From assembly GCF_006345805.1 (NCBI RefSeq), contig NC_043005.1, forward strand, positions 68,820,001-68,884,000: DNA of 64,000 nucleotides, in the 5' to 3' direction. Below, piece after piece: positions 9,472 to 57,932 of the stretch. The notes below the pieces were generated by a model, which did not search any database, was not told the origin of the DNA, and saw only the letters and a program-made list of their open reading frames with translations. A program made the translations under genes and the position numbers. Source of the DNA: Octopus sinensis (lineage: Eukaryota). How positions within the stretch are numbered: position 1 is the stretch's first letter; each line of letters opens with the position of its first letter.

Positions 9472-10068
9472 GAGGATTATTATTTCTAATCTCCATAAAG
9501 GAGACTAAGGCAGCAGTACTGGGTATTAATAGATATCGCCAAGCTAGCATGTCAGTCCTTATCAATAAGGAGTAGCCGAACCCAGTAGGGGGAACCTGAT
9601 GACCGCACCCTGTTCGAAGGTTGTAATGGACACAGCTCTCTGTGTACATAGCTAGCTAGAGGTGATAGTCTATTGGAGCTAATCAACGGCAGCATTCGTC
9701 CTATTTTTCTGGAGTGCTATGTTATCTTAGCAATTACTATTAATACTCAGTACTGCATCCGTAGTTTCCTTTAGGGAGATTTAGAAATAACAATATTTTC
9801 ATTTTTGAAAACCAGTGAATGTGTTCTACTGAATGTATATAAAAAAAACATTCGAGCATTCGGCTACAGCACATTGAAAATACCCCGGAAACCGTTCTGT
9901 GGCTGTTGCACCAGCAGTGGAGAGCTGATGTCCTACCCTGTTTGAAGGTGATAATGGACACAGGTTTGTTTCAGATAGCTAGATAGAAGCTATTGCCTCT
10001 TGGAGCTAATCAACGGCAGCATTGGTCCTATTTTTGTCGACTTCCATGTTAGCTTGTCAATAACTATA
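9472..10068 (+). mobile_element. Retrozyme/pLTR-like repeat: inverted partial unit plus ~1.4 tandem units (period ~328 bp)
   Basis: CTGTT(C/T)GAAGG...ATAGCTAG.TAGA...TTGGAGCTAATCAACGGCAGC recurs at 9610 and 9938. 9472-9582 is reverse-complement unit sequence. Homologous to 57166-57888. Confidence 0.75.
9866..9906 (+). ncRNA. Degenerate type I hammerhead motif, U3:A8 variant
   Basis: ACAGCACA-TTGAAAA-taccccg-GAAA-ccgt-TC-TGTGGCTGT. Stem I is intact with one bulge; stem II is eroded. Confidence 0.5.
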
Positions 10069-10250
10069 TATATAGTGTATATTTCGCTTAAAATTAACCT
10101 TCACTGAAAGTATCGCTCGCTCGCGATGTTTCGCTTAAAATGTCGTTAAACATTTATTTTCCTCAAAATGACATTGCTCAAAGTGAGTGGTACTCGAAAT
10201 CTCACTTGGTTCTTCCTTCTCGTAGATTGATGTGAATGCACAATAGAAAA

Positions 10251-17208: not shown

Positions 17209-17347
17209 ATTAATTTATTATATAGAAGGAGCTTCTACAGGACTAGAACTGTTTCATTCAAGAGAAATCTTCAGGAGCTTCCTGAAGATTTCTCTTGAAT
17301 GAAACAGTTCTAGTCCTGTAGAAGCTCCTTCTATATAATAAATTAAT
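17209..17347. repeat. Perfect palindrome, 68-bp arms with 3-nt spacer (inverted pLTR-like)
   Basis: 17209-17276 is the reverse complement of 17280-17347; the spacer is GCT. Part of a ~190-bp insert between (TA)n tracts. Confidence 0.95.
17273..17329 (+). ncRNA. Type I hammerhead ribozyme
   Basis: Stem I AGGAGCTTC/GAAGCTCCT (9 bp), core CTGAAGA, stem II TTC-tctt-GAA, GAAA, stem III ACAG-ttctagtc-CTGT, cleavage triplet GUA. Confidence 0.85.
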
Positions 17348-17399
17348 TTTACTCTACTATGTATGAGTACCTTATTTACTTGTTTAACCCCGATAGGTA

Positions 17400-17443
<44 letters not shown>

Positions 17444-25399: not shown

Positions 25400-25627
25400 A
25401 TTTTTTGGCCCACAGGGGGCATAACATAGAGTGGAGAAAGAAGGACCGACAAAGGAATTGAGTCGATTATATCGAACCCACTGCGTAACTGGTACTTATT
25501 TAATCGACACCGAAACGATGAAAGGCAAAGTCGACTTCGGCGGAATTTGAACTCTGAAAGTAACGGCAGACGAAATACTGATAAGCATTTCGCACGGCGT
25601 GCTAATGATTCGGCCAGCTTGCCGCCC
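25400..25627 (-). mobile_element. SINE family A
   Basis: GATGAAAGGCAAAGTCGAC.TCGGCGGAATTTGAACTC...GCCAGCTTGCCGCC. Confidence 0.9.
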
Positions 25628-26171
25628 TATTATACACATACGTATATGATGGATTCTCCCGTCGAAGACGACGAATAAATGTTCAGCTTTTGCCACTCGA
25701 CCTGCAAAAATGATTTGTGTATAGTGATTAAATGCTCATGCGGCACATTAGACCATTCTCTTAATCAATTCGCTGTTATCGGAACTCGTGCACTTTGTAC
25801 CAAGGGTAAGGTGTCGAAGAGGTCGCAGAGTAACGTGAGATGGAGCCTTTTGCTCAGAGCACAAAGCACTAACCGGATAATATTAAAATGTTTCAAAACA
25901 GATATGAGGTGGGCATGAGACTATATCTGTATAGAGGGATCTTAATTATTGTATTCGGAGGGTAAGAAATCCGTAGATAATTATTATATATAATTATTTA
26001 TTGTTAGCATGTCACAGTTACAATAGTCCTTTATTAGAACTATTTTGTCTTCCAGTTCTCAATAGAATTTACGAAATACAATGCATTTCTAAATAGTTTG
26101 ACCAAGAAGAAACTATTCGTAAATACTTCGCAAGCCGATACTCTTCACGAGGATGCAGCATAATTCATCTC

Positions 26172-26578
26172 GCGAGCTGGCAGAAAGTTAGCAGGCCAGG
26201 TGATATACTTAGCGGTATTTCGTCTGTCTTTACATTCTGAATTCTAATTCCACCGAGGTCGACTTTGCCTTACATACTTTCGGAGTCGAATAAATAATTA
26301 CCAGTTACGCACTGGGGTCGATATAATCGACTTAATCCGTTTGTCTGCCCTTGTTTGTCCTCTCTGTGTTTCGCCCCTTCTGGGTAGTAAAGAAGTAGGT
26401 ATTTCGTCTGCCGGCGCCTTTTGAGTTCAACTTCCGCCCACGTCGACTTTGCCTTTCATCCTTTCGGGGTCGATTAAATAAGTACCAGTTAATCACCGGG
26501 GTCGATGTAATCGACTTAATCCCGTTGTCTGTACTTGTTTGTCCCCTTTATGTTTAATCTCTTGTGGGAAATGAAGAA
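26172..26578 (+). mobile_element. SINE family A, dimer
   Basis: Two consecutive bodies joined at ~26400 (GTATTTCGTCTG). Confidence 0.9.
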
Positions 26579-27273
26579 AAAAATATATATAAAATAAGCC
26601 TGAATTTAGAATTCAACAATGAGCGCGTAGCCCAATAAACTGATTCAGGATAAATAGAGGCATTACTTTAGGCGCCCCAGAGATTACACTAAATTAAGTC
26701 CTCTGCTCCCAACCTGTATGCGAATACTATCTTTTCCGCTCAACATGCAGAACATATCTCTACCGATTGTTTCGAGCACATAACTAGATCTACTTTAGCA
26801 TAAAGATCTTGGATCACATTTTGATTAGATGGCTATGACGAGAGTTATCTCCATGACACAAACGTTTTAAAAGAAACGCAGCTGCTCTTTACATAAAAAC
26901 GAGATAAGTGTGACAATTTCGTAACAAAACAAAATTACATACCGAATGATACGTGTTAAATATTATTTAGACTCCGAGTATAATTTATAATATATTATTT
27001 TCAATGATCTATTAGTTCCCGATTGGTGTACAAATATGAATTATATTCATTTTAAGGAATGGGGGAACGTTATTAAGGAGCAGAGTGCAGTTATATATTA
27101 TTCGTGCAACAATCTTATTAGATTTCACCAATTTCCTATGATAATGGTTTTCAATGTGAAGTTCATTATAATCTATGATGGTGATATCTTAATTTTATAT
27201 CCCGTGAATTACGTTTGAGAAGAATGACGGCATTTTTGAAGGAGAATAGATTATATATATTTATACAGGTATC

Positions 27274-31900: not shown

Positions 31901-32300
31901 ATAATGTTTTCTACTCTAGGCACAAGGCCCAAAAATTTAGGGGAGGTAGCCTGTCGATTAGATCGGCTCCAGTACGCAACTGGTACTTAATCTATCAACC
32001 ACAGAAAGATGAAAGGCAAAGTGGACCCCATTGGAATTCGAACTCATGAAGTAAAGACAGTCGAATTACCTATTTCTTTACTACCCACAAGGAGCTAAAC
32101 TCAGAGGAGACAAACATGGACAGACATACGGAATAAGTAGATTATATCGACCACAGTACGTAACTGGTGCTTAATTTATCGACCCCGAAAGGATGAAAGG
32201 CAAAGTCGACCTCGGCAGAATTTGAAATCAGAATATAACAGCAGACGAAATACGGCTACGCATTTCGCCCGACGTGCTCACGTTTCTGCCTGCCCACCAC
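31901..32300 (-). mobile_element. SINE family A, dimer
   Basis: The core GATGAAAGGCAAAGT.GAC occurs twice (~32010 and ~32195). Confidence 0.9.
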
Positions 32301-39528: not shown

Positions 39529-40635
39529 CTTATTTCCATTATTATTTTTGTATTGGTAGAAAACATAATGGAGTTTATGACGTATGTCTGCTTAGAAAGA
39601 GACCGTATATTTTCCGTTTATATGCATTTTATTCATTTCTCCGGGTTCCTGGATACGTTTATCTCTTTCGTTTATTCGTTTTCGTTTTTTTAGCTATTTT
39701 CCATCAACACAGTCGTCAATGAACTGCTTAGAGGATTTCATTCCAATAACATTATATAATTCTTTCTGTCACTGCATGCTCTTTGTGTTCTATTCATCAC
39801 TACTTCCACACCTCCAGCAATGAGGAGCATCCATAACTGCCTTACATGTAATATATCATTTTAAGACTTTTAACAATGGTTCACGCCCCAGCATGGCCAC
39901 ATCTCATGAGCTGAAACTGGAAAAATCAAAATCAAAATCCAAAAATCATATGACTCGCTTCTCATTCGTGTACCTATGTTTGTGTGACTGTGACTATGCA
40001 CACAACACACACACAAACACACATGTATATATGTATATATATATATATAATATATATATATATATATTATATATATATATATATATTTCTTTATTACACA
40101 CAAGGGGCTAAACATAAATGGGACAAACAAGGACAGACAAAGGTGTTAAGTCGATTACATCGATCCCAGTGCGTAATTGGTACTTAATTTATCAACCCCG
40201 AAAAATATATGCATGCATATATTTTTCTTGCAGTGTTTCTTTTGCTGAAAGCAGTTCGCCTCTTGGTGAGAATCTATGTTTGCATTTCATCTTTCTACCT
40301 TTTCTGGTGTTTACGTTGTTTCCACAGATTAAATCATTCAATATTGATATTTCACCTCTCGTTTTTCAATCTCTTCTTCAATTTTACTTTTCCAATTGAG
40401 AATACTTCTCAGGTTTCTATTTCATTCTTCTTTGTTTTTCAGAGGAATACTGTTGGTTTCAATTGTCTTAGAAGATGCGTACGTAATTTCATTTAATTTA
40501 GTGAGATCTGGTTTAATTCTTGTATAAATTCCTTTGTTCCATAGTTTCCAATTTTAATTTGTTTTCTATTTTGGATTGTATTTTAGTGCTTATGAAGTGG
40601 TTCTCTATCATGCATATCAAGACAAACAGCGCATA
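39529..40635 (+). repeat. Left arm of ~1-kb inverted duplication (partner 41995-42963)
   Basis: ORFs 40118-40399(+) and 42135-42644(-) translate almost identically. This arm carries two extra insertions. Confidence 0.95.
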
Positions 40636-41696
40636 TAAGGCAGGCACTGCTTGCTAGATGAAATGATTATCAAATACAGCTGAATATACTTCTAGCCATG
40701 GAGTTACAACCTGAACATTATAAATCACCAGCCGTTTATCTCTTATTTAGGGAACTCATCATCGTCTCCTTATTCGTATATATTTGAAACCTCTTTCTTC
40801 TTGTAGGGTTCTATCTATGAAACATATTGATCTTTTTCACAGATATTTTCTAAAGGTAACATTTTATTTGTTGCAGAAGAAGCTAATGATATTTCATTAA
40901 CCAATTCACTATACGGAGGATATTATATATGTGTTATTACCAGCACTATTATTTTGTCATTTAACGTTGAATTAAAACCATTTGATGGTGCTATGTATTT
41001 TTAATCAGAAATAAATACTATCTTGGTACATTCGATTCACTTCTATCTCTATAAAATGCATATATAAAAATAAAGCTATAATGATATCATTTATTATATT
41101 CCTACCATTAGTTAAGTGATATTTATTAGGCTTTACAGAAAACCATTCATAGTGTGACTGAATTAAAACCAACGTTTCCTATTACAAGCAAACCAAAGTT
41201 TGATACTGTTTATAACTAAGAGAAATTATCCATTTGTTAAATATGAATAGGAACCAAATATTACATATCTACTAATCAAGGATGATTTATGAATCTATTT
41301 ATTACACATTACTAACTGCATTGTATTTAAGATTGTTTCCAAACAGTAAGTTCAACTTGTATATATTATAAGGATGATAACTTACAAGGGTGGTCAATTA
41401 ATGATATATAAGAAAGTGATAAATGAAATATAGTGAAACAAATAAGGTATTATCATCACATGCCACATTACAATAGCATGGTAAAAGCAATATTTTGATT
41501 GGTAGCTAAGTTGTTGAATGTCTGAAATATCAATGGAAAATTAATACTTGAAGAAAGATTTCACTTTAAAATATTACAAAGAAATGAGTTAAAGTCATAG
41601 AACTTGCGAAAAACGATCAGATGCTATTAATATATAACCGGATACTAAGAAATAGCTATGCGGGTCGAGCATATTAGCTTCTTCTTACAAGTTAAT

Positions 41697-42017
41697 ATGC
41701 GGGTCGTGCATATTAACTTGCTCAATACCACAGATTTCTATATCAGTTGTTTGACCTTAATCATTTCAGTATGTCCGTTGGTGGCTGATAATATACGCAT
41801 CTCTTATCATGAGCAGGAGGAGTGCAGGAGCATCATAGCTATGTATTGAGAGGAATGTTTGGAGTCTGAATAATTCAACTCTGAAAACATGGCCGCTTCG
41901 TTCAACATTCTGAAACAACCTTTATTCAAGGACAAATTGAGTGGGATGGGTTACTCTTCCGGAAGAAAGTTCTATCCGGGCACACCTACACGGTTATGCG
42001 CTGTTTATCTTGATATG
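41697..42017 (+). mobile_element. Older diverged copy of the 3612-4170 retroposon
   Basis: TGCTCAATACCACAGATTT..TCAGTTGTTTGACCTTAA...GCTGTTTATCTTGATATG is the reverse complement of ~3755-4055. Confidence 0.8.
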
Positions 42018-42963
42018 CATGATAGAGAACCACTTCATAAGCTCTAAAATACAATCCAAAATAGAAAACAAATTAAAATTGGAAACTATGGAACAAAGGA
42101 ATTTATACAAGAACTAAAACCAGATCTTACTGAATTAAATTAAATTATGTACGCATCTTCTAAGACAATTGAAACCAACAGTATTCCTCTGAAAAAAACA
42201 AAAACAAAGAAATACAAACCTGTGAAGAATTCCAAATTGGAAAAGTAAAATTGAAGAAGAGATTGAAATAATGAGAGGGGAAATATCAATATTGAATGAT
42301 TTAATCTGTGGAAACAAGGTAAAAACCTGAAAGGGAAGAAAAATGAAGTGCAAACATAGATTCTCACCAAGAGGCGAACGGCTTTCAACAAAAGAAACAC
42401 TGCAACAAAAATATATGCATGGATATATGTGTGTGTATGTGTGTATGTGCGTGTATGTATGTAAATATATATATGGAGAGAGAGAGAGAGAGAGACATAT
42501 ACATATACATATATATACATGTGTGTTTGTGTGTGTGTAAGTGTGTGTGTTGTGTGCATAGTCACAGCAACACAAACATAGGTGCACGAATGAGAAGCGA
42601 GTCATAAGTGAACCATTGTTAAAACTCTTAAAATGATATATCACATGTAAGGCAGTTATGGATGCTCCTCATTGCTGAAGGTTTGGAAGTAGTGATGGAT
42701 AGAACCCAAAGAGCATGCAGTGACAGAAAGAATTATATAATGTTATTGGAATGAAATCCTCTAAGCAGTTCATTGACGACTGTGTTGATGGAAAATAGCT
42801 AAAAAAACGAAAACGAATAAACGAAAGAGATAAACGTATCCAGGAACCCGGAGAAATGAATAAAATGCATATAAACGGAAAATATATGGTCTCTTTCTAA
42901 GCAGAAATACATCATAAACTCCATTATGTTTTCTACCAATACGAAAATAATGATGGAAATAAG
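41995..42963 (-). repeat. Right arm of ~1-kb inverted duplication
   Basis: Reverse complement of 39529-40635, minus the insertions. Confidence 0.95.
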
Positions 42964-47153: not shown

Positions 47154-48534
47154 GGAGGAAAAGTACTCACATTTACTTGGAGTGAAATGCATTTAACTGC
47201 TGTTTACCTATGTCCAACTTCAATCGATATATGCGTAGCTGACTGTTTGTCGTGGGAGTGTAATTCAATGAAATTCCTAATTTGAATGAATAAAACAAAA
47301 CAGAAAAAGATACAACTGTACTTGTTCATTTCTAATGATGGCCAGGAAATGGAGCTTTGTTTGTGTCTATTTTGGGACGTTTCTTTTTGCCTCTGTTTAT
47401 TGTATGTGAGTTTTTGCTAATATATATTTGGGTCTCTTGATTAACAATCTTTTAGTTTGTTTATGACGTGTTTATATCTATTTAGTAGATTAGATTTGCT
47501 TCTGTTGATGTGTGTCATTTTATGTTTATTGTCTTTGGGTGTTATTACACGTGTGCAATTTGCAAATTTATCTTTATTTTGTATATCCCTACCCGTGCTT
47601 TACTAAACTGAACGTTTGAAATAGGAAAATCTTCATCTGGAAATAGTTACGAATGAATGGTCTAAAATATGACGGTAATTCATGAGGATACTCATAACTG
47701 AGTGTTCATTAATATTATGACGTTTGAATGCTTTGGCGTTAAGATTGAAATATTCAAATGTTTTGTTTGTGAGTTGGATGAATGAGATGACAGCGATTTT
47801 ATAATTAAACTAATCAAACTGATAAGATATGTTTTAAGCTATTATTCAACATTATTATCAGTTTGATTAGCTTAATTATAAAGTGCACAGCTATGGAAGA
47901 ATATGCAAGTATCACGCATTAAATATGATGTACAGGGTCAGTGACAGTATGATAAAATTTTCTAATTATTTTCTAAGACTTACTTGCGTATATAAATTGC
48001 ATTACATTTAGACTGTCTAATAGATTATAAGTGGTTTGGGGCGTTGTGTGAAGAGAAGTTTTGTTTGTGGTGTATCGACATAAGCAGCTTGTTCTTTGCG
48101 TACGTCATTTTGTTTTGGTCAAGACATATTGTTTTTTTTGTGTTTATGCACGTCTATGTGTATTATAAATTTACTTTCCATTGAGAGGTGTTTGATCATG
48201 TAATGTGGATATCAGTATTTTGTATGTCCAAGGCAGTAAAATTGTTTTTATCTGTTTGGATGTTTGGTCTGTTTTGAAGATGAATTTATCTTGGTGTCAT
48301 AATCGTGACTCAAAACCTCTTATTCACTTGCTTTGTTGTTTGACACGATTATGTTGTAACCTTTTTATATGGTGATATACTGAATATTATTTCGCCAATT
48401 TTTTATTTGCCGTTATATTTTCTTCAAATCCGAGATACGTTTAGACCGAGATGTTCACGGACGGTGTGTTTCGTGTATCGGTATTTAATGATAACATTTG
48501 TAGTACAGTTGTTGTTTGGACATTGATTTAGATA

Positions 48535-48933
48535 TTTTTTACATGTTTTAGTCATTTGACTGTGGCCATGCTGGAGCACCGACTTTAGTCGAACAAATCG
48601 ACACGAAGACTTATTCCTTGTAAGCCTAGTACTTATTCTATTTATCTCTTTTGCCGAACCGCTAGGTTACGGGGACGTGAACATACCACCATCTGTTGTC
48701 AAGCGGTGTTGGGGGGGGGGGGCAACACAGACACACAAACATATACACACACATATAAATATATATATATATATAGACATATATACGACGGGCTTCTTTT
48801 CAGTTTCCGTCTACCAAATTCGCCCACAAGCCTTTGGTTGGCCCTTTGGTTGCCCCAGGTGCCACGCAGAGGGACTGAACCCGGCACCATGTGGTTCGTA
48901 AGCAAGCTACTTACCACGCAGCCACTCCTACGT
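48535..48933 (-). mobile_element. tRNA-derived SINE family B (CORE-like)
   Basis: Minus strand reads GTAGGAGTGGCTGCGTGGTAAG...GGGTTCAGTCCC...GGCACCTGGGGCAA..., internal (TA/TG)n, tail GCTCCAGCATGGCCACAGTCAAATGACT. Confidence 0.92.
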
Positions 48934-49029
48934 CTATTTCCTATGATTTATTTTTAATTTGAGCATTAGTTTAGCCTTCTCATAGTGTTTTGCTTTGTTG
49001 ACGTTAAGTTTGAACTGTTCGAAAGGTAA

Positions 49030-49260
49030 TAACACATGCTTTCTCTCCCGCAATGACATACATTTTCATACGTGTTTGCCCGATCATTGATCCATCGTTT
49101 TGATATCAATAAGTTCAACCGAATAATTTTTCTGCAGCTGTAGAAAACTTCTGCATTGTTTCTGTTGAGCAGCTTGTCTAATTTGCTCTCTACTGGAAAG
49201 TCTATTGTGTACTCTAACTTTGTTATATTTACGTTAAGAGTAGACATTTCTGATCGAGCA
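49030..49260 (-). mobile_element. Highly degenerate PLE RT-endonuclease linker
   Basis: FPVESKLDKLLNRNNAEVFYSC...NVCHCGRESMC resembles the PLE linker FP..HKLHKIFNRNxVKVSYSC...CNCR...CP. Confidence 0.55.
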
Positions 49261-49586
49261 GCTATTCACGTGCAGTAATTTATTGGATATTCAGCAGGGG
49301 TTGAGGTTTATCTGTCTTTCATTGTCGACTGTATTGCATCGTCGATTAATTACTAATATTCTGAGGCTTCTGCGAAAGAATTCTTATCGAGGGTGAGTGT
49401 ATAACTTCTACGCTTTTAAGTGAAATGAACTAGGTGCTTTTTAAGTGTAGTAAGTTTAGCTGTTCAGGTTAATCTTTGCTTGAAAACGGCTTGATGTTAT
49501 TTCGTTCCCTTGTCTGAATATGTGCAGTTGAAACACCACCTAACCTTTGCAGTACCACATAATTTTTTAATGGTTTTATCTAATAT

Positions 49587-49941
49587 TTCTTTTAGTTGTT
49601 TGAGTTATTTGACAGCGGCCATTCTGGAACACCACCTTTAGTCGAACGGTCTCTTATACCGAACAGCTAAGTTACGGGTACATAAACACACCAGCATTAG
49701 TCAAGTGTTGGTCGACGGAACAAATATGAACATACAAATACATACACACATATATATATATATACATATATACATATATACATGACGAGCTTCTTTCAGT
49801 GTCCGTCTACCAAATCCACTCACAAGGCATTGGTCGGTTCGAGGGTATAGTAGAAGACACTTGTCCAAGATGCTAAGCAGTGGGACTGAACCCAGAACAG
49901 TGTAGTTGGGAAGTAAGTTTCTTACTACACAGCGACTCCTG
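49587..49941 (-). mobile_element. SINE family B
   Basis: CCGTCTACCAAATCCACTCACAAGGC...GAAGACACTTG.CCAAG...CAGTGGGACTGAACCC. Confidence 0.9.
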
Positions 49942-49952
49942 AAAACATATGC

Positions 49953-50020
<68 letters not shown>

Positions 50021-51036
50021 CATACATATACATATATATAAATTTTAAGATTTCACCTTTTATAAATTCAACAATGAAAAAAGTAAATTATTACATATAG
50101 AAAAAATTACATTCTATAGAGAAAATTAAATATATGATAAAAACATATGCCACTCACATACAATAACAGAGGCAAAAAGAAACGTCCCAAAATAGACACA
50201 AACAAAGCTCCATTTCCTGGCCATCATTAGAAATGAACAAGTACAGTTGTATCTTTTTCTGTTTTGTTTTATTCATTCAAATTAGGAATTTCATTGAATT
50301 ACAATGATAATAAATAAATAAAACGTATATATTTGGTAAAGTGCGATGTCTCGACCATCTTCTCTGCTATGTTACTAATTCGTAAAACACTACGAGAGAA
50401 GAAATTTAGCAACGTAGACATTAATAGTTGCAAAAAATAAATTCACTATTCTTCTTTAATACATAGTGTCAAAAGTAAATTTTGCCAGCTGAAAATATTT
50501 ATTTTCTCACATAAATTACACATGAAAACTAAAATTTATTTCGTCATGATATGTTACTATTGTACTCGGAAATCAGTATGATACATTCATTAATAAAATA
50601 TGCCGAAGTTCAATAACCTATTTTTGTTAAGGTTATTATGAACCCATATTCTTTTATCACAAGGGTGTATTGCGAAATTTTAAAAATCGTTGTACGAATA
50701 AAGGTGGGTAAATGCGTATTGGGTGCCCATAATTTTATGCTTCTCAGATAAGAGCAGTGTTATATGAAATTATATATTTCTGATCAATAGCAAAAGAAGG
50801 AGTAACAGTAATTTTCATAAGCGTTTAGATTGAAAGGAGTTCTGCAATCTCTTGAGGGGAGAGTTGGTATAATCGTATCGGTTGATCATGATTATAATTA
50901 AGACGGTTAGATATCGCATTAAAACAAATGAAGCAATTCAATGAATGGAGTACGTAACAATGCAATGCCATAAACCGAATTTGTGTCTAAACGTTTGTCT
51001 TAAAAGTTAAGTTTTTCATGAAAATGTCTATAAGAA

Positions 51037-55050: not shown

Positions 55051-56561
55051 AGCCCTACCCACCGTCTAAGTAATTTTATTGACATTGTTTTGAAACCACT
55101 ATGTACTTACATACCCAGTTTCATCAGGGATGACATCGACTTCCTGTCCCGTCTTCCCCAAAACAACAGAAACAAATTCAGTTTTACTAAGTTTTGATGT
55201 GGTAAGCCTCTACACCAATATTCCAATAGGAATAAAGGCGATTAAATACTGGTTAGAAAAACATAGAGAAGTGATTCCCAGCAGATTCACAGTGCCATTT
55301 ATATTAGACACAGTCAAACTTATTCTAGAAAACAATACATTCTTCTTCAATGGAAAGAATTACATCCAAATTAGAGGCACGGCGATGGGAACGAGGTTTG
55401 CTCCCGTTTACGACAACTCTGTAATTGGATACTTAGAACAACAACTCTACCAAGAGGTGGAGGTAAACTATGGCACTGGATTTAGAAAGTATATTGAAAA
55501 GGCATGGAAGAGATACCTTGACGACTGCTTCATAATCTGGACAGAATCTCTAAATACTCTGGAAGAGTTCAATATCCTCCTGAACAACCTACACCCATCT
55601 CTCCAATTACAAAGGAGATAAGTAGTACCAAATTACCATTCCTAGATATAATGGTAATTAAAAAAGACACACCATCACCACAGATATATACTATAAACAC
55701 ACAGACACACATCAATACCTAAATTTTAAGTCGTGCCATCCACCACATGCAAAACGCAACATCCCATACTGCCTAGCCAGAAGAATTTGTACCATTATAG
55801 ATGATGCAAATATCAGGAACAAACGCCTAATAGAACTAAGAGAATTTTTGCTCAAACAAAAATACCCATCTCTACTTATAGAAAATGGCATACAGCGGGC
55901 TATAAAAATACCCATACAACAACTTAGGTAGGACAACCCAAGGAAGAGGAAAACAAGAACAAGTCATACCATTCATAGTGGCACACAACCCATGTCACCA
56001 GAATATTTTCAACATTGCAAAAGCAAACCTACCAATCATTGCCCAAAGTAATGAATTAAAAGGCATAATCACGGATCGAGCTATGGTGCTTAGTAAAAGA
56101 CAGCCTAAAAACTTGAAAAAATTACTAACAAAGGCAAAATTTGACCTTAGCAACAAAGACCAAACATTCACTGTATCTAAATGCAATGATAATCGATGTG
56201 ACACATGCCAATTCATACATACCGACCAATATATAAAGACAAAAACCGGGAAAATATTCACAAACGCGAATATGAACTGCAAAGGCAGAAATTTAATTTA
56301 CTGCATCAAATGCCCAAATTGTGAAGAAATATATGTAGGTCAGACAGGAAACGCACTATCAGAACGCTCACGTGTATCCGGCAACAGATTAGAGACCCAG
56401 AGGTCCGTCAGATACCTTTGAGTAACCACCTAGCAACATGTGGCCGGAAAATGTATATAATATTTCCGTTCTACAAATTACACAGCCCAAGTGAAATCGA
56501 GAGGAGAATCAGAGAAAAGAATTTTATTGATAAATTCGAACCCAAGCTAAATAAGCAATAG
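55051..56561 (+). pseudogene. Penelope-like retroelement RT + GIY-YIG, 5'-truncated and frameshifted
   Basis: RT motifs SFDVVSLYTNIP, GTAMGTRFAP and RYLDDCF; Cys linker KCNDNRCDTC; endonuclease NLIYCIKCPNCEEIYVGQTG. Ends ..FEPKLNKQ*. Confidence 0.95.
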
Positions 56562-57165
56562 TAATAATACTTAGATAGCAGGAAAATTATCTTATTTAGG
56601 GTTAAAAGTTCTATTGCCACCACCATCACCACTAGCAACAATAATTAAGGTGCTGACAATGATGATGCTGGCAATTGAAATATAAAAATATAAAAATCTC
56701 TGACAAAGGCAATTTACACCATTTCTAAAAATAGCCCAACAATTGCTGCTTCGGCCAGGGTCAAGGTACAGGACTCTTGACATGTCCAACAAAGCGTGAC
56801 GCCTAAACCAGTCAGCTCAACCAACCAATCAGCTTAAGTAATTGAGTGATGCTACACACTGATTGGTCACTGATTGATTACAAAACCTAGCATTTGGAGC
56901 CTACCCAACTGTATTTAAAGCACATATTCAATCATCTCGCTACAGTCAAAAATTGTGAAGCATGACTGTCACCACTACTACATGAACCTGAAGATTGCAG
57001 AATTTAATGCATGAAAGTACTAGTTCAATGAGAATGAACATTTAACATTCTATTATTTTATTTTATTTTATTATATTATCTTATATCATTATCAGATTGT
57101 AAATAAAACGTGAAAATCAGACAAGGTCGGACTTCCTTTTATTAATATATTCTTCTATACACAAT
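56562..57165 (+). mobile_element. 3' pseudo-LTR of the Penelope-like element
   Basis: Follows the endonuclease stop. Contains CCAAT/ATTGG boxes, TATTTAAA, a hammerhead and AATAAA (~57102). Confidence 0.7.
56981..57030 (+). ncRNA. Minimal type I hammerhead ribozyme of the PLE
   Basis: CATGAAC-CTGAAGA-t-TGCA-gaatttaa-TGCA-t-GAAA-GTAC-TA-GTTC(a)ATG, with palindromic stem III AGTACT. Confidence 0.85.
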
Positions 57166-57311
57166 GGCAGTCATATAAATATAAGACTAAAGCTGTCGCT
57201 GATTAGCTCCAAGAGGCAATCGCCTCTAGCTAGCTATATGACACACGAACCTGAGTCCATTACAGCCTTCGAACAGGGGAGGTCAGCCGCTTCACATTGC
57301 TAGTGAGACAT

Positions 57312-57352
57312 CTGCAGACATGTTTCAGGGTTGTTGCCCTTTATCAATGCAG
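57312..57352 (-). ncRNA. Minimal type I hammerhead, U3:A8 variant
   Basis: Minus strand reads CTGCA-TTGATAA-AGGG-caacaa-CCCT-GAAA-CATG-TC-TGCAG. Confidence 0.8.
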
Positions 57353-57675
57353 CGTAGTCAGATTCAGCCGGAGTCGCTACTGACCGTCTGTTCGAAGGTT
57401 GTAATGGACGCAGGTTCGTGTGTCAAATAGCTAGCTAGAGGCGATGGCCTCTTGGAGCTAATCAGTGACAGCTTTAGTCTTATATTTATAAGACTGTCAT
57501 ATTAGTATGGCGATAACTATTAATATCCAGTAACGCTGCCGTAATCTCCTTTAGAGAGACTTAGTAATTTTAATACTTCTATTATTGAAAACAGGTGGAT
57601 GTATTCCACTGTAACTAGGTAAATAAAATCTTCGAACAGACGGTCAGTAGCGACAACTGCTGAGTCTGACTACGC

Positions 57676-57714
57676 TGCATTGATAAAGGGCAACGACCCT
57701 GAAACATGTCTGCA
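57676..57714 (+). ncRNA. Minimal type I hammerhead, U3:A8 variant
   Basis: TGCA-TTGATAA-AGGG-caacga-CCCT-GAAA-CATG-TC-TGCA. Confidence 0.8.
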
Positions 57715-57882
57715 TATGTCTGACTAGCAAGGTGAAGCGGCTGACCTCCCCTGTTCGAAGATTGTAATGGACACAGGTTCGTGTGTCATATAGCTAGCTA
57801 GAGGCGATGGCCTCTTGGAGCTAATCAGCGTCTGCTTTAGTCTTATATTTATAAGACTGCCATATTAGTATGGCGATAACTA

Positions 57883-57932
<50 letters not shown>

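Follow-up and report, generated by a model that had tools for sequence, protein, structure and literature searches.

Inverted arms of Penelope-like elements and a retrozyme in Octopus sinensis likely join mostly where copying ended and rarely through the ribozyme helix

Head-to-head arms of short inverted insertions in the Octopus sinensis genome likely join mostly where copying ended, at a predicted RNA start or at a likely pause before a long hairpin, and only rarely via the helix that closes the ribozyme. The arrangement probably arises through twin target-primed reverse transcription: the two nicked target strands each prime on the same sense RNA, and the resulting cDNAs are joined by microhomology where they stopped. 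The window analyzed here is a stretch of 64,000 nucleotides. A first-pass annotation had proposed that inversion breakpoints recur at the ribozyme's closing helix at three loci in the window. These loci represent two families, A and C, and a third family, D, adjoins the locus at 57388; the claimed geometry was found at one of the three.

At that locus, the strand switch is as it had been described. An inverted family A arm (57164-57397, minus strand, unit positions 242 to 112) and a forward arm (57388-57889, plus strand, 1.4 units of the 362-363-nt monomer) overlap at 57388-57397 (gap of -10), so that both contain the 10-nt microhomology CTGTTCGAAG, the 5' strand of the helix read on the minus strand and its 3' strand read on the plus strand. 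The pairing reported for the intact unit also stands, as 57630-57639 is the exact reverse complement of 57751-57760 (5' and 3' strands of the outer helix, both on the plus strand). This outer helix is the base of a long rod, ~35 nt from the 5-bp stem I that flanks the core at 57680, and is distinct from stem I; the 5' ends of arms accumulate on its 3' strand (unit positions 359-13). The outer end of the forward arm is the “short” one (position 138) and sits on (TA)n; that of the inverted arm is nonstandard and abuts the tail of the family D element. The two meet at 57155-57170 with a 2-nt overlap, the tail being ~13 nt short of its usual long end and the arm ending at position 112; this meeting point may reflect a nested insertion or a later deletion.

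The other two loci differ. Near 17277, the palindrome center does lie within stem I (AGCTTC at 17276-17281), but the insertion belongs to family C and both arms start on the same strand. Near 9580, where the switch had been placed just outside stem I, an older family A relative (9473-10073; 69 to 79% identity) has an inverted arm at 9473-9571 that starts near unit position 92-96 and a forward arm from 9582 that starts 28 nt before the helix 3' strand. Between them, ~10 nt (9572-9581) align to neither arm, and the junction is off the helix. The window also holds long inverted repeats of other families at 39529-42963, 47259-50303, 25409-26579, and 31953-32284, with arms of 139 to 356 nt that are 77 to 100% complementary.

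Family A has the makeup of a non-LTR retrozyme: a tandem unit of 362-363 nt, within the 170- to 400-nt range of that class, with one type I hammerhead per unit. Arrays reach ~2.8 units, and the hammerhead sits at the tip of the long interrupted rod. In the window, the hammerhead lies at 57675-57715 (plus strand), where a motif scan gives a U3:A8 core at 57680 with core, stems, and NUH site in type I order and compensatory changes between subfamilies support the stems; the sequence predicts cleavage after GUC at 57710. A mirror hammerhead lies on the minus strand (core 57347). Among the 150 of 162 matches listed in an Rfam scan, hammerhead families were absent; those listed were microsatellite-driven miRNA look-alikes, each below its gathering score. 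No stop-to-stop frame of 80 or more amino acids was found within 57164-57879. The 2.7-Gb genome contains at least 2858 family A arms, which fall into two main subfamilies that are ~83% alike and differ by compensatory changes in hammerhead stem II and palindromic changes in stem III. Copies of the second subfamily (L044, L102, L109, L113, L116, and L136) show 97 to 100% mutual identity and carry the compensatory changes in stems II and III. This subfamily was probably active recently.

A search with a 31-nt junction pattern recovered the exact 57388-type junction at six loci genome-wide, including the window copy, versus 628 intact copies recovered by a pattern of the same stringency. A seventh helix junction occurs in the other family A subfamily (L112). 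The copies do not look like products of one ancestral inversion: at the six loci the outer ends and flanks differ, no variant is common to more than three of the six, and the variant found in three is a common one (19/50). An origin from one ancestor was set aside because the outer ends differ and the group has no private variant. A rare variant (0/49) links the window copy to L007, and these two may derive from a single source gene. Rough scaling from 12 pattern matches puts the total of family A junctions at ~1150 genome-wide, and the chance expectation for the helix junction, by similarly rough scaling, is ~0.4, so the six found represent ~15-fold enrichment. With ~1150 junctions in total, the helix route accounts for ~0.5%; in the unbiased sample described below, it accounts for 1 of 40. 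The helix junction is therefore a real but minor route, about 0.5 to 2.5% of junctions. The unit contains two 10-bp inverted repeats, the helix and a palindrome at positions 41-50, the latter outside the pause zone. Although equal in length, the palindrome yielded no junction genome-wide versus six for the helix.

Two further loci display the TTCGAA motif of the helix. At L202 (G000:C2:189078433), the entire ribozyme rod is missing from one family A arm, which is joined via the TTCGAA repeat that occurs in each strand of the helix; copying here jumped directly over the base of the hairpin. At L016 (1464-2211), a single insertion contains two junctions, each centered on the TTCGAA palindrome inside the helix 3' strand.

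Rates were estimated from the loci behind the first 100 of the 2858 family A places, all on a single chromosome. With overlapping duplicates counted once, and without one tandem duplicate and one distant fragment, this unbiased sample comprised 59 loci with 99 arms and 40 head-to-head junctions; a best-match set, biased to long arms, was left out of the rate estimates. Breakpoints are not spread uniformly. In family A, 17 of 99 arm 5' ends fall at unit positions 359-13, versus 5.2 expected from the positions at risk (hazard ratio of 3.7, scan-corrected P = 0.012). Among the 99 arms, ends are not overrepresented on the helix 5' strand, in stem I, or at the cut site. Ends at 359-13 are also found in single-armed copies without an inversion (6/19). 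The partner ends were examined in 27 junctions with one end in this zone, a set that combines the unbiased sample with an enriched set biased against helix junctions: the partner lies in the same zone in 5, on the helix 5' strand in 1, and elsewhere in 21. The enriched set lacks copies with C at the first position, which include most intact copies and helix junctions, and was used for partner positions only, not for rates. Microhomology of at least 2 nt is present at 21 of 26 filler-free junctions versus 16% of random pairs, and filler is present at 14 of the 40. Unrelated sequence of 40 to 162 nt separates the arms at L050 (1609-1770), L125 (1746-1881), and L013 (1409-1448). We weighed and discarded the idea that family A transcription starts at position 1: the ends spread over ~17 nt, and neither a TATA box nor an extra G was seen. 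Drosha-like cutting of the rod was another idea considered.

Family C gave 4646 core matches by pattern search, which was used after a 67-nt DNA search returned no match, a limit of that search. The window copy is a two-armed insertion (17209-17402) with a minus-strand short-end arm (17209-17275) and a plus-strand long-end arm (17276-17402), and its center is the start of stem I (AGCTTC/GAAGCT). The type I hammerhead, assigned by hand, lies at 17276-17326 on the plus strand (core 17282, predicted cut after GUA 17320) and differs from the minimum-energy fold. The center lies on the stem I 5' strand, where both arms start, and the junctions are symmetric; therefore, pairing of the helix strands gives no microhomology here. 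Genome-wide, 465 tight palindromes lie just upstream of the core, or approximately one-fifth of all arms (palindromes and arms were matched at different stringencies), and 637 arms start at AGCTTC with another base in place of the T that precedes it in the element. None of the 50 spacers listed, inspected by eye, reaches upstream of the A of AGCTTC. A TATAAA lies 29 nt upstream of the start of stem I; TATA-to-start spacing and hammerhead numbering are used here as generally understood. An extra G precedes 10 of 20 distinct arms (from 30 loci), of which 6 could be explained by the partner arm and 4 could not. In 4 of the 50 listed spacers (C1:153597424, C1:166783044, C2:59596654, and C2:85062167, by eye), T replaces the first A after the extra G, perhaps through misreading of a modified first nucleotide.

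With its pLTR-like end bearing a hammerhead, tail, inverted arms, and (TA)n target, family C behaves like a nonautonomous passenger of Penelope-like elements (PLEs). In four long loci, where the arms extend up to 3.5 kb and are rich in microsatellites, no RT-EN open frame was found upstream of the pLTR, only microsatellite-rich sequence. Three near-perfect palindromes with such arms (L261 1-8001, L258, and L251) are possible sources of long double-stranded RNA.

The idea that family C ends mark a capped RNA start preceded the analysis of family D, which served as the discriminating test. Family D is a broken PLE (55094-57163) whose frameshifted ORF remnants (55094-56560, plus strand) appear to hold RT pieces followed by a GIY-YIG piece (Pfam RVT_1, E = 0.0026; GIY-YIG, E = 0.048; both below the curated cut-off). 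Family D has a pLTR with a hammerhead, an optional tail, an inverted truncated copy, and a (TA)n target. In the window, all on the plus strand, a TATA-like box at 56912-56919 precedes by 30 nt a predicted transcription start at 56942-56947, which lies 46 nt upstream of the core (56988) of a minimal hammerhead (56981-57030, stems read by hand) and ~39 nt upstream of its stem I; the pLTR end and tail occupy 57030-57163. Genome-wide, 184 arms lack the base of the intact element at -67. One hundred of these were scored, and 5 proved intact. Of the remaining 95 ends, 64 lie at -40 to -48 and 24 at -10 to -39. Stem I accounts for 5, one of which belongs to an intact copy that has lost 1 nt, and the last 2 lie at -49 to -59. 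The region at the predicted start is thus a genome-wide hotspot of 5' ends and palindrome centers, and since it holds 64 of 95 ends and stem I only 5, the family D hotspot tracks the TATA box and not the ribozyme. It also opens a 7-bp hairpin, so a structural cause could still be at work. Immediately before 13 of the 18 ends at -46, a G replaces the element's T; the partner arm could supply many of these. An untemplated G beside (TA)n was seen in 7 of 25 ends at the start versus 0 of 9 further in, which is suggestive only and not significant (one-sided P = 0.09). This comparison replaced one that also counted templated G (P = 0.73) and was ill-posed.

Two-armed copies nearly always pair one short-end arm with one long-end arm (92 of 95 scored, three families). 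In family A, 35 of 40 do so and the other 5 have a nonstandard end; none pairs two short or two long ends. In family C, the pairing holds for all 39 scored among 43 loci, or for 39 of 40 if L149 (long plus long) is counted; the remaining 4 loci, L149 among them, have more or fewer than two arms and were excluded, and L261 was unscored. In family D, it holds for 18 of 26 copies (18 of 20 scorable), with 1 short plus short, 1 long plus long, and 6 unscorable. The same-end copies number three (L149, L335, and L350). Furthermore, sharing of source variants is roughly five- to sixfold higher between arms of the same locus than between arms of different loci (45/246 versus 412/13384 and 21/64 versus 92/1352; 0 of 2000 permutations), and the subfamily is the same in 39 of 39 scored arm pairs. 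Variants common to both arms could also come from later gene conversion. At some family C junctions, both arms carry an extra G with one filler base between them (L158/L159), which requires two finished cDNAs.

Because nearly every scored copy has one short and one long outer end, and because a PLE protein can extend both target strands from two sites, twin priming is the simplest explanation. RT would start at each of the two outer ends. For families C and D, the clustering of ends and their spacing of 29-30 nt from the TATA-like box suggest that the inner ends gather at the capped 5' terminus of the transcript; for retrozyme A, they would gather where RT pauses as it meets the 3' strand of the rod. 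The two cDNAs would then be joined by short microhomology wherever each stops. The 57388 junction would be a special case: one cDNA has paused on the helix 3' strand and pairs with the 5'-strand copy carried by its partner, the long helix microhomology being available when the partner cDNA has already passed the 5' strand. A bolder proposal, to which we give somewhat less than an even chance, is that PLE integration is obligate asymmetric twin priming, with an RT dimer engaging the two start sites of a single capped and uncut sense RNA, so that each target strand is served by its own site. If true, inverted pLTRs, the one-sided tail, and junction palindromes would be one phenomenon, palindrome centers would map transcription starts from genome sequence alone, antisense self-priming would be unneeded, and retrozymes would exploit this machinery too, RT pausing at the base of their rod. 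An untemplated 5' G has been read as a trace of the cap in L1 and SVA (PMC4859970, PMC9341517). Two reports count against the twin-priming explanation: Frangieh et al. saw no strand difference in start site in bulk (PMC11167929), and Penelope of Drosophila virilis has a TATA-less internal promoter (PMC2377424).

An alternative is self-priming or snap-back, in which one cDNA or antisense transcript folds back and is extended into a copy that the endonuclease then cleaves at the short site. The junction palindromes of rotifer Penelope elements have been attributed, as a proposal, to self-priming of an antisense template (PMC3846280), the tail has been ascribed to endonuclease resolution (PMC8557442), and snap-back in R2 happens after full-length cDNA is made (PMC11371274). 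It would account for the shared variants and for the short-plus-long ends, and 21 of 35 family A copies, as well as short family C palindromes, can be nested as it predicts. However, fold-back copying of one arm could not have made the other 14 of 35, in which each arm holds sequence that the other lacks; the L158/L159-type junctions call for two cDNAs; and TATA spacing of sense polarity fits a sense template. We therefore regard snap-back as unlikely. The fold-back priming invoked by the first-pass annotation fared similarly at the helix itself, where L034 and L036 are nested as it predicts but the arm spans of three of the seven helix junctions (L007, L031, and L112) make it impossible. That annotation's broader reading, that the closing helix supplies microhomology for a template switch or fold-back and so sets where inverted pLTRs break, draws support from these nested copies, the recurrence of the exact junction, the family C hotspot on stem I, and the skip of the entire rod at L202. 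As an account of a few events (seven junctions) the microhomology survives, but as a general rule it is very unlikely: it is used in 1 of 40 unbiased junctions and is outnumbered by intact copies 628 to 6, family C junctions are symmetric on one strand, the 9580 junction is off the helix, single-armed copies end in the same zone, and the family D hotspot lies ~39 nt from stem I, which contradicts it as a rule.

RNA structure alone might instead set the stops, with every hotspot a helix edge and no role for the cap. All hotspots do touch a predicted helix (stem I in C, the 7-bp hairpin in D, and the rod in A), and the cap-G test was not significant. We nevertheless judge this quite unlikely, since stops in C and D lie at the far 5' edge, past the unwound helix and against a sharp upstream wall, since only 6 of 95 family D ends fall at -16 to -27, around the hairpin 3' strand, and since the sites in C and D have the same 29-30-nt TATA spacing. 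Postinsertion rearrangement or misassembly at inverted repeats is hardly credible. Palindromes are hard to assemble and some loci are tandem duplicates (L062-L065), but the flanks are distinct, the spacers are varied and include filler, and the fixed short-plus-long ends sit on (TA)n in three unrelated families (82 of 96 standard ends in family A).

The twin-priming model has a precedent in L1, where the first primer is at the poly(A) end and the inverted and forward pieces are adjacent parts of the RNA without overlap. Unlike in L1, the arms here start at fixed internal sites 20 to 70 nt apart and overlap, which yields long palindromes. A second priming at the target and microhomology-joined cDNAs are common to both (Ostertag and Kazazian 2001, cited via PMC10760644). 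How tandem and inverted PLE structures form has been stated as an open question (PMC8557442). Our literature search found no paper mapping PLE inversion junctions to RNA starts or helices and none applying twin priming to PLEs; this is weak evidence of absence, as subscription papers such as the 2005-2006 PLE reviews were outside its reach.

The nearest biochemical system is the anole PLE protein (PAc, Poseidon), a predicted dimer that nicks and extends both strands and starts at two internal sites (PMC11167929). Its target-primed reverse transcription in vitro resembles the insertions here in the two internal RT start sites bounding the tail, the AT-rich targets, and the uncut RNA template; the main text of that report gives neither the pairing of start sites per insertion nor cDNA joining. 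The present counts give a rule that can be tested in this existing system: one short and one long end per insertion, and inner ends at the RNA start or a strong helix, with the 57388 junction a minor special case. PLEs with an inverted 5'-truncated pLTR (PMC8557442, PMC3846280, PMC2377424) share with the copies here the head-to-head arms, one-sided tail, microsatellite targets, pLTR hammerhead, and junction palindromes. In the available text of those papers, the origin of the inversion is undefined or ascribed to self-priming, whereas here the inner ends are mapped and the short-plus-long pairing is counted. Metazoan non-LTR retrozymes (PMC7229834; bioRxiv 10.64898/2026.07.22.740005) match family A in the 170- to 400-nt tandem unit, type I hammerhead, lack of an ORF, and high self-pairing, and the U3:A8 core of family A has been reported for PLE hammerheads (PMC4209133). 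Retrozymes have been described as tandem repeats (PMC7229834; bioRxiv 10.64898/2026.07.22.740005), whereas most copies here are short two-armed inverted insertions with PLE-type ends, and these shared insertion signatures tie the spread of the retrozyme to PLE enzymes.
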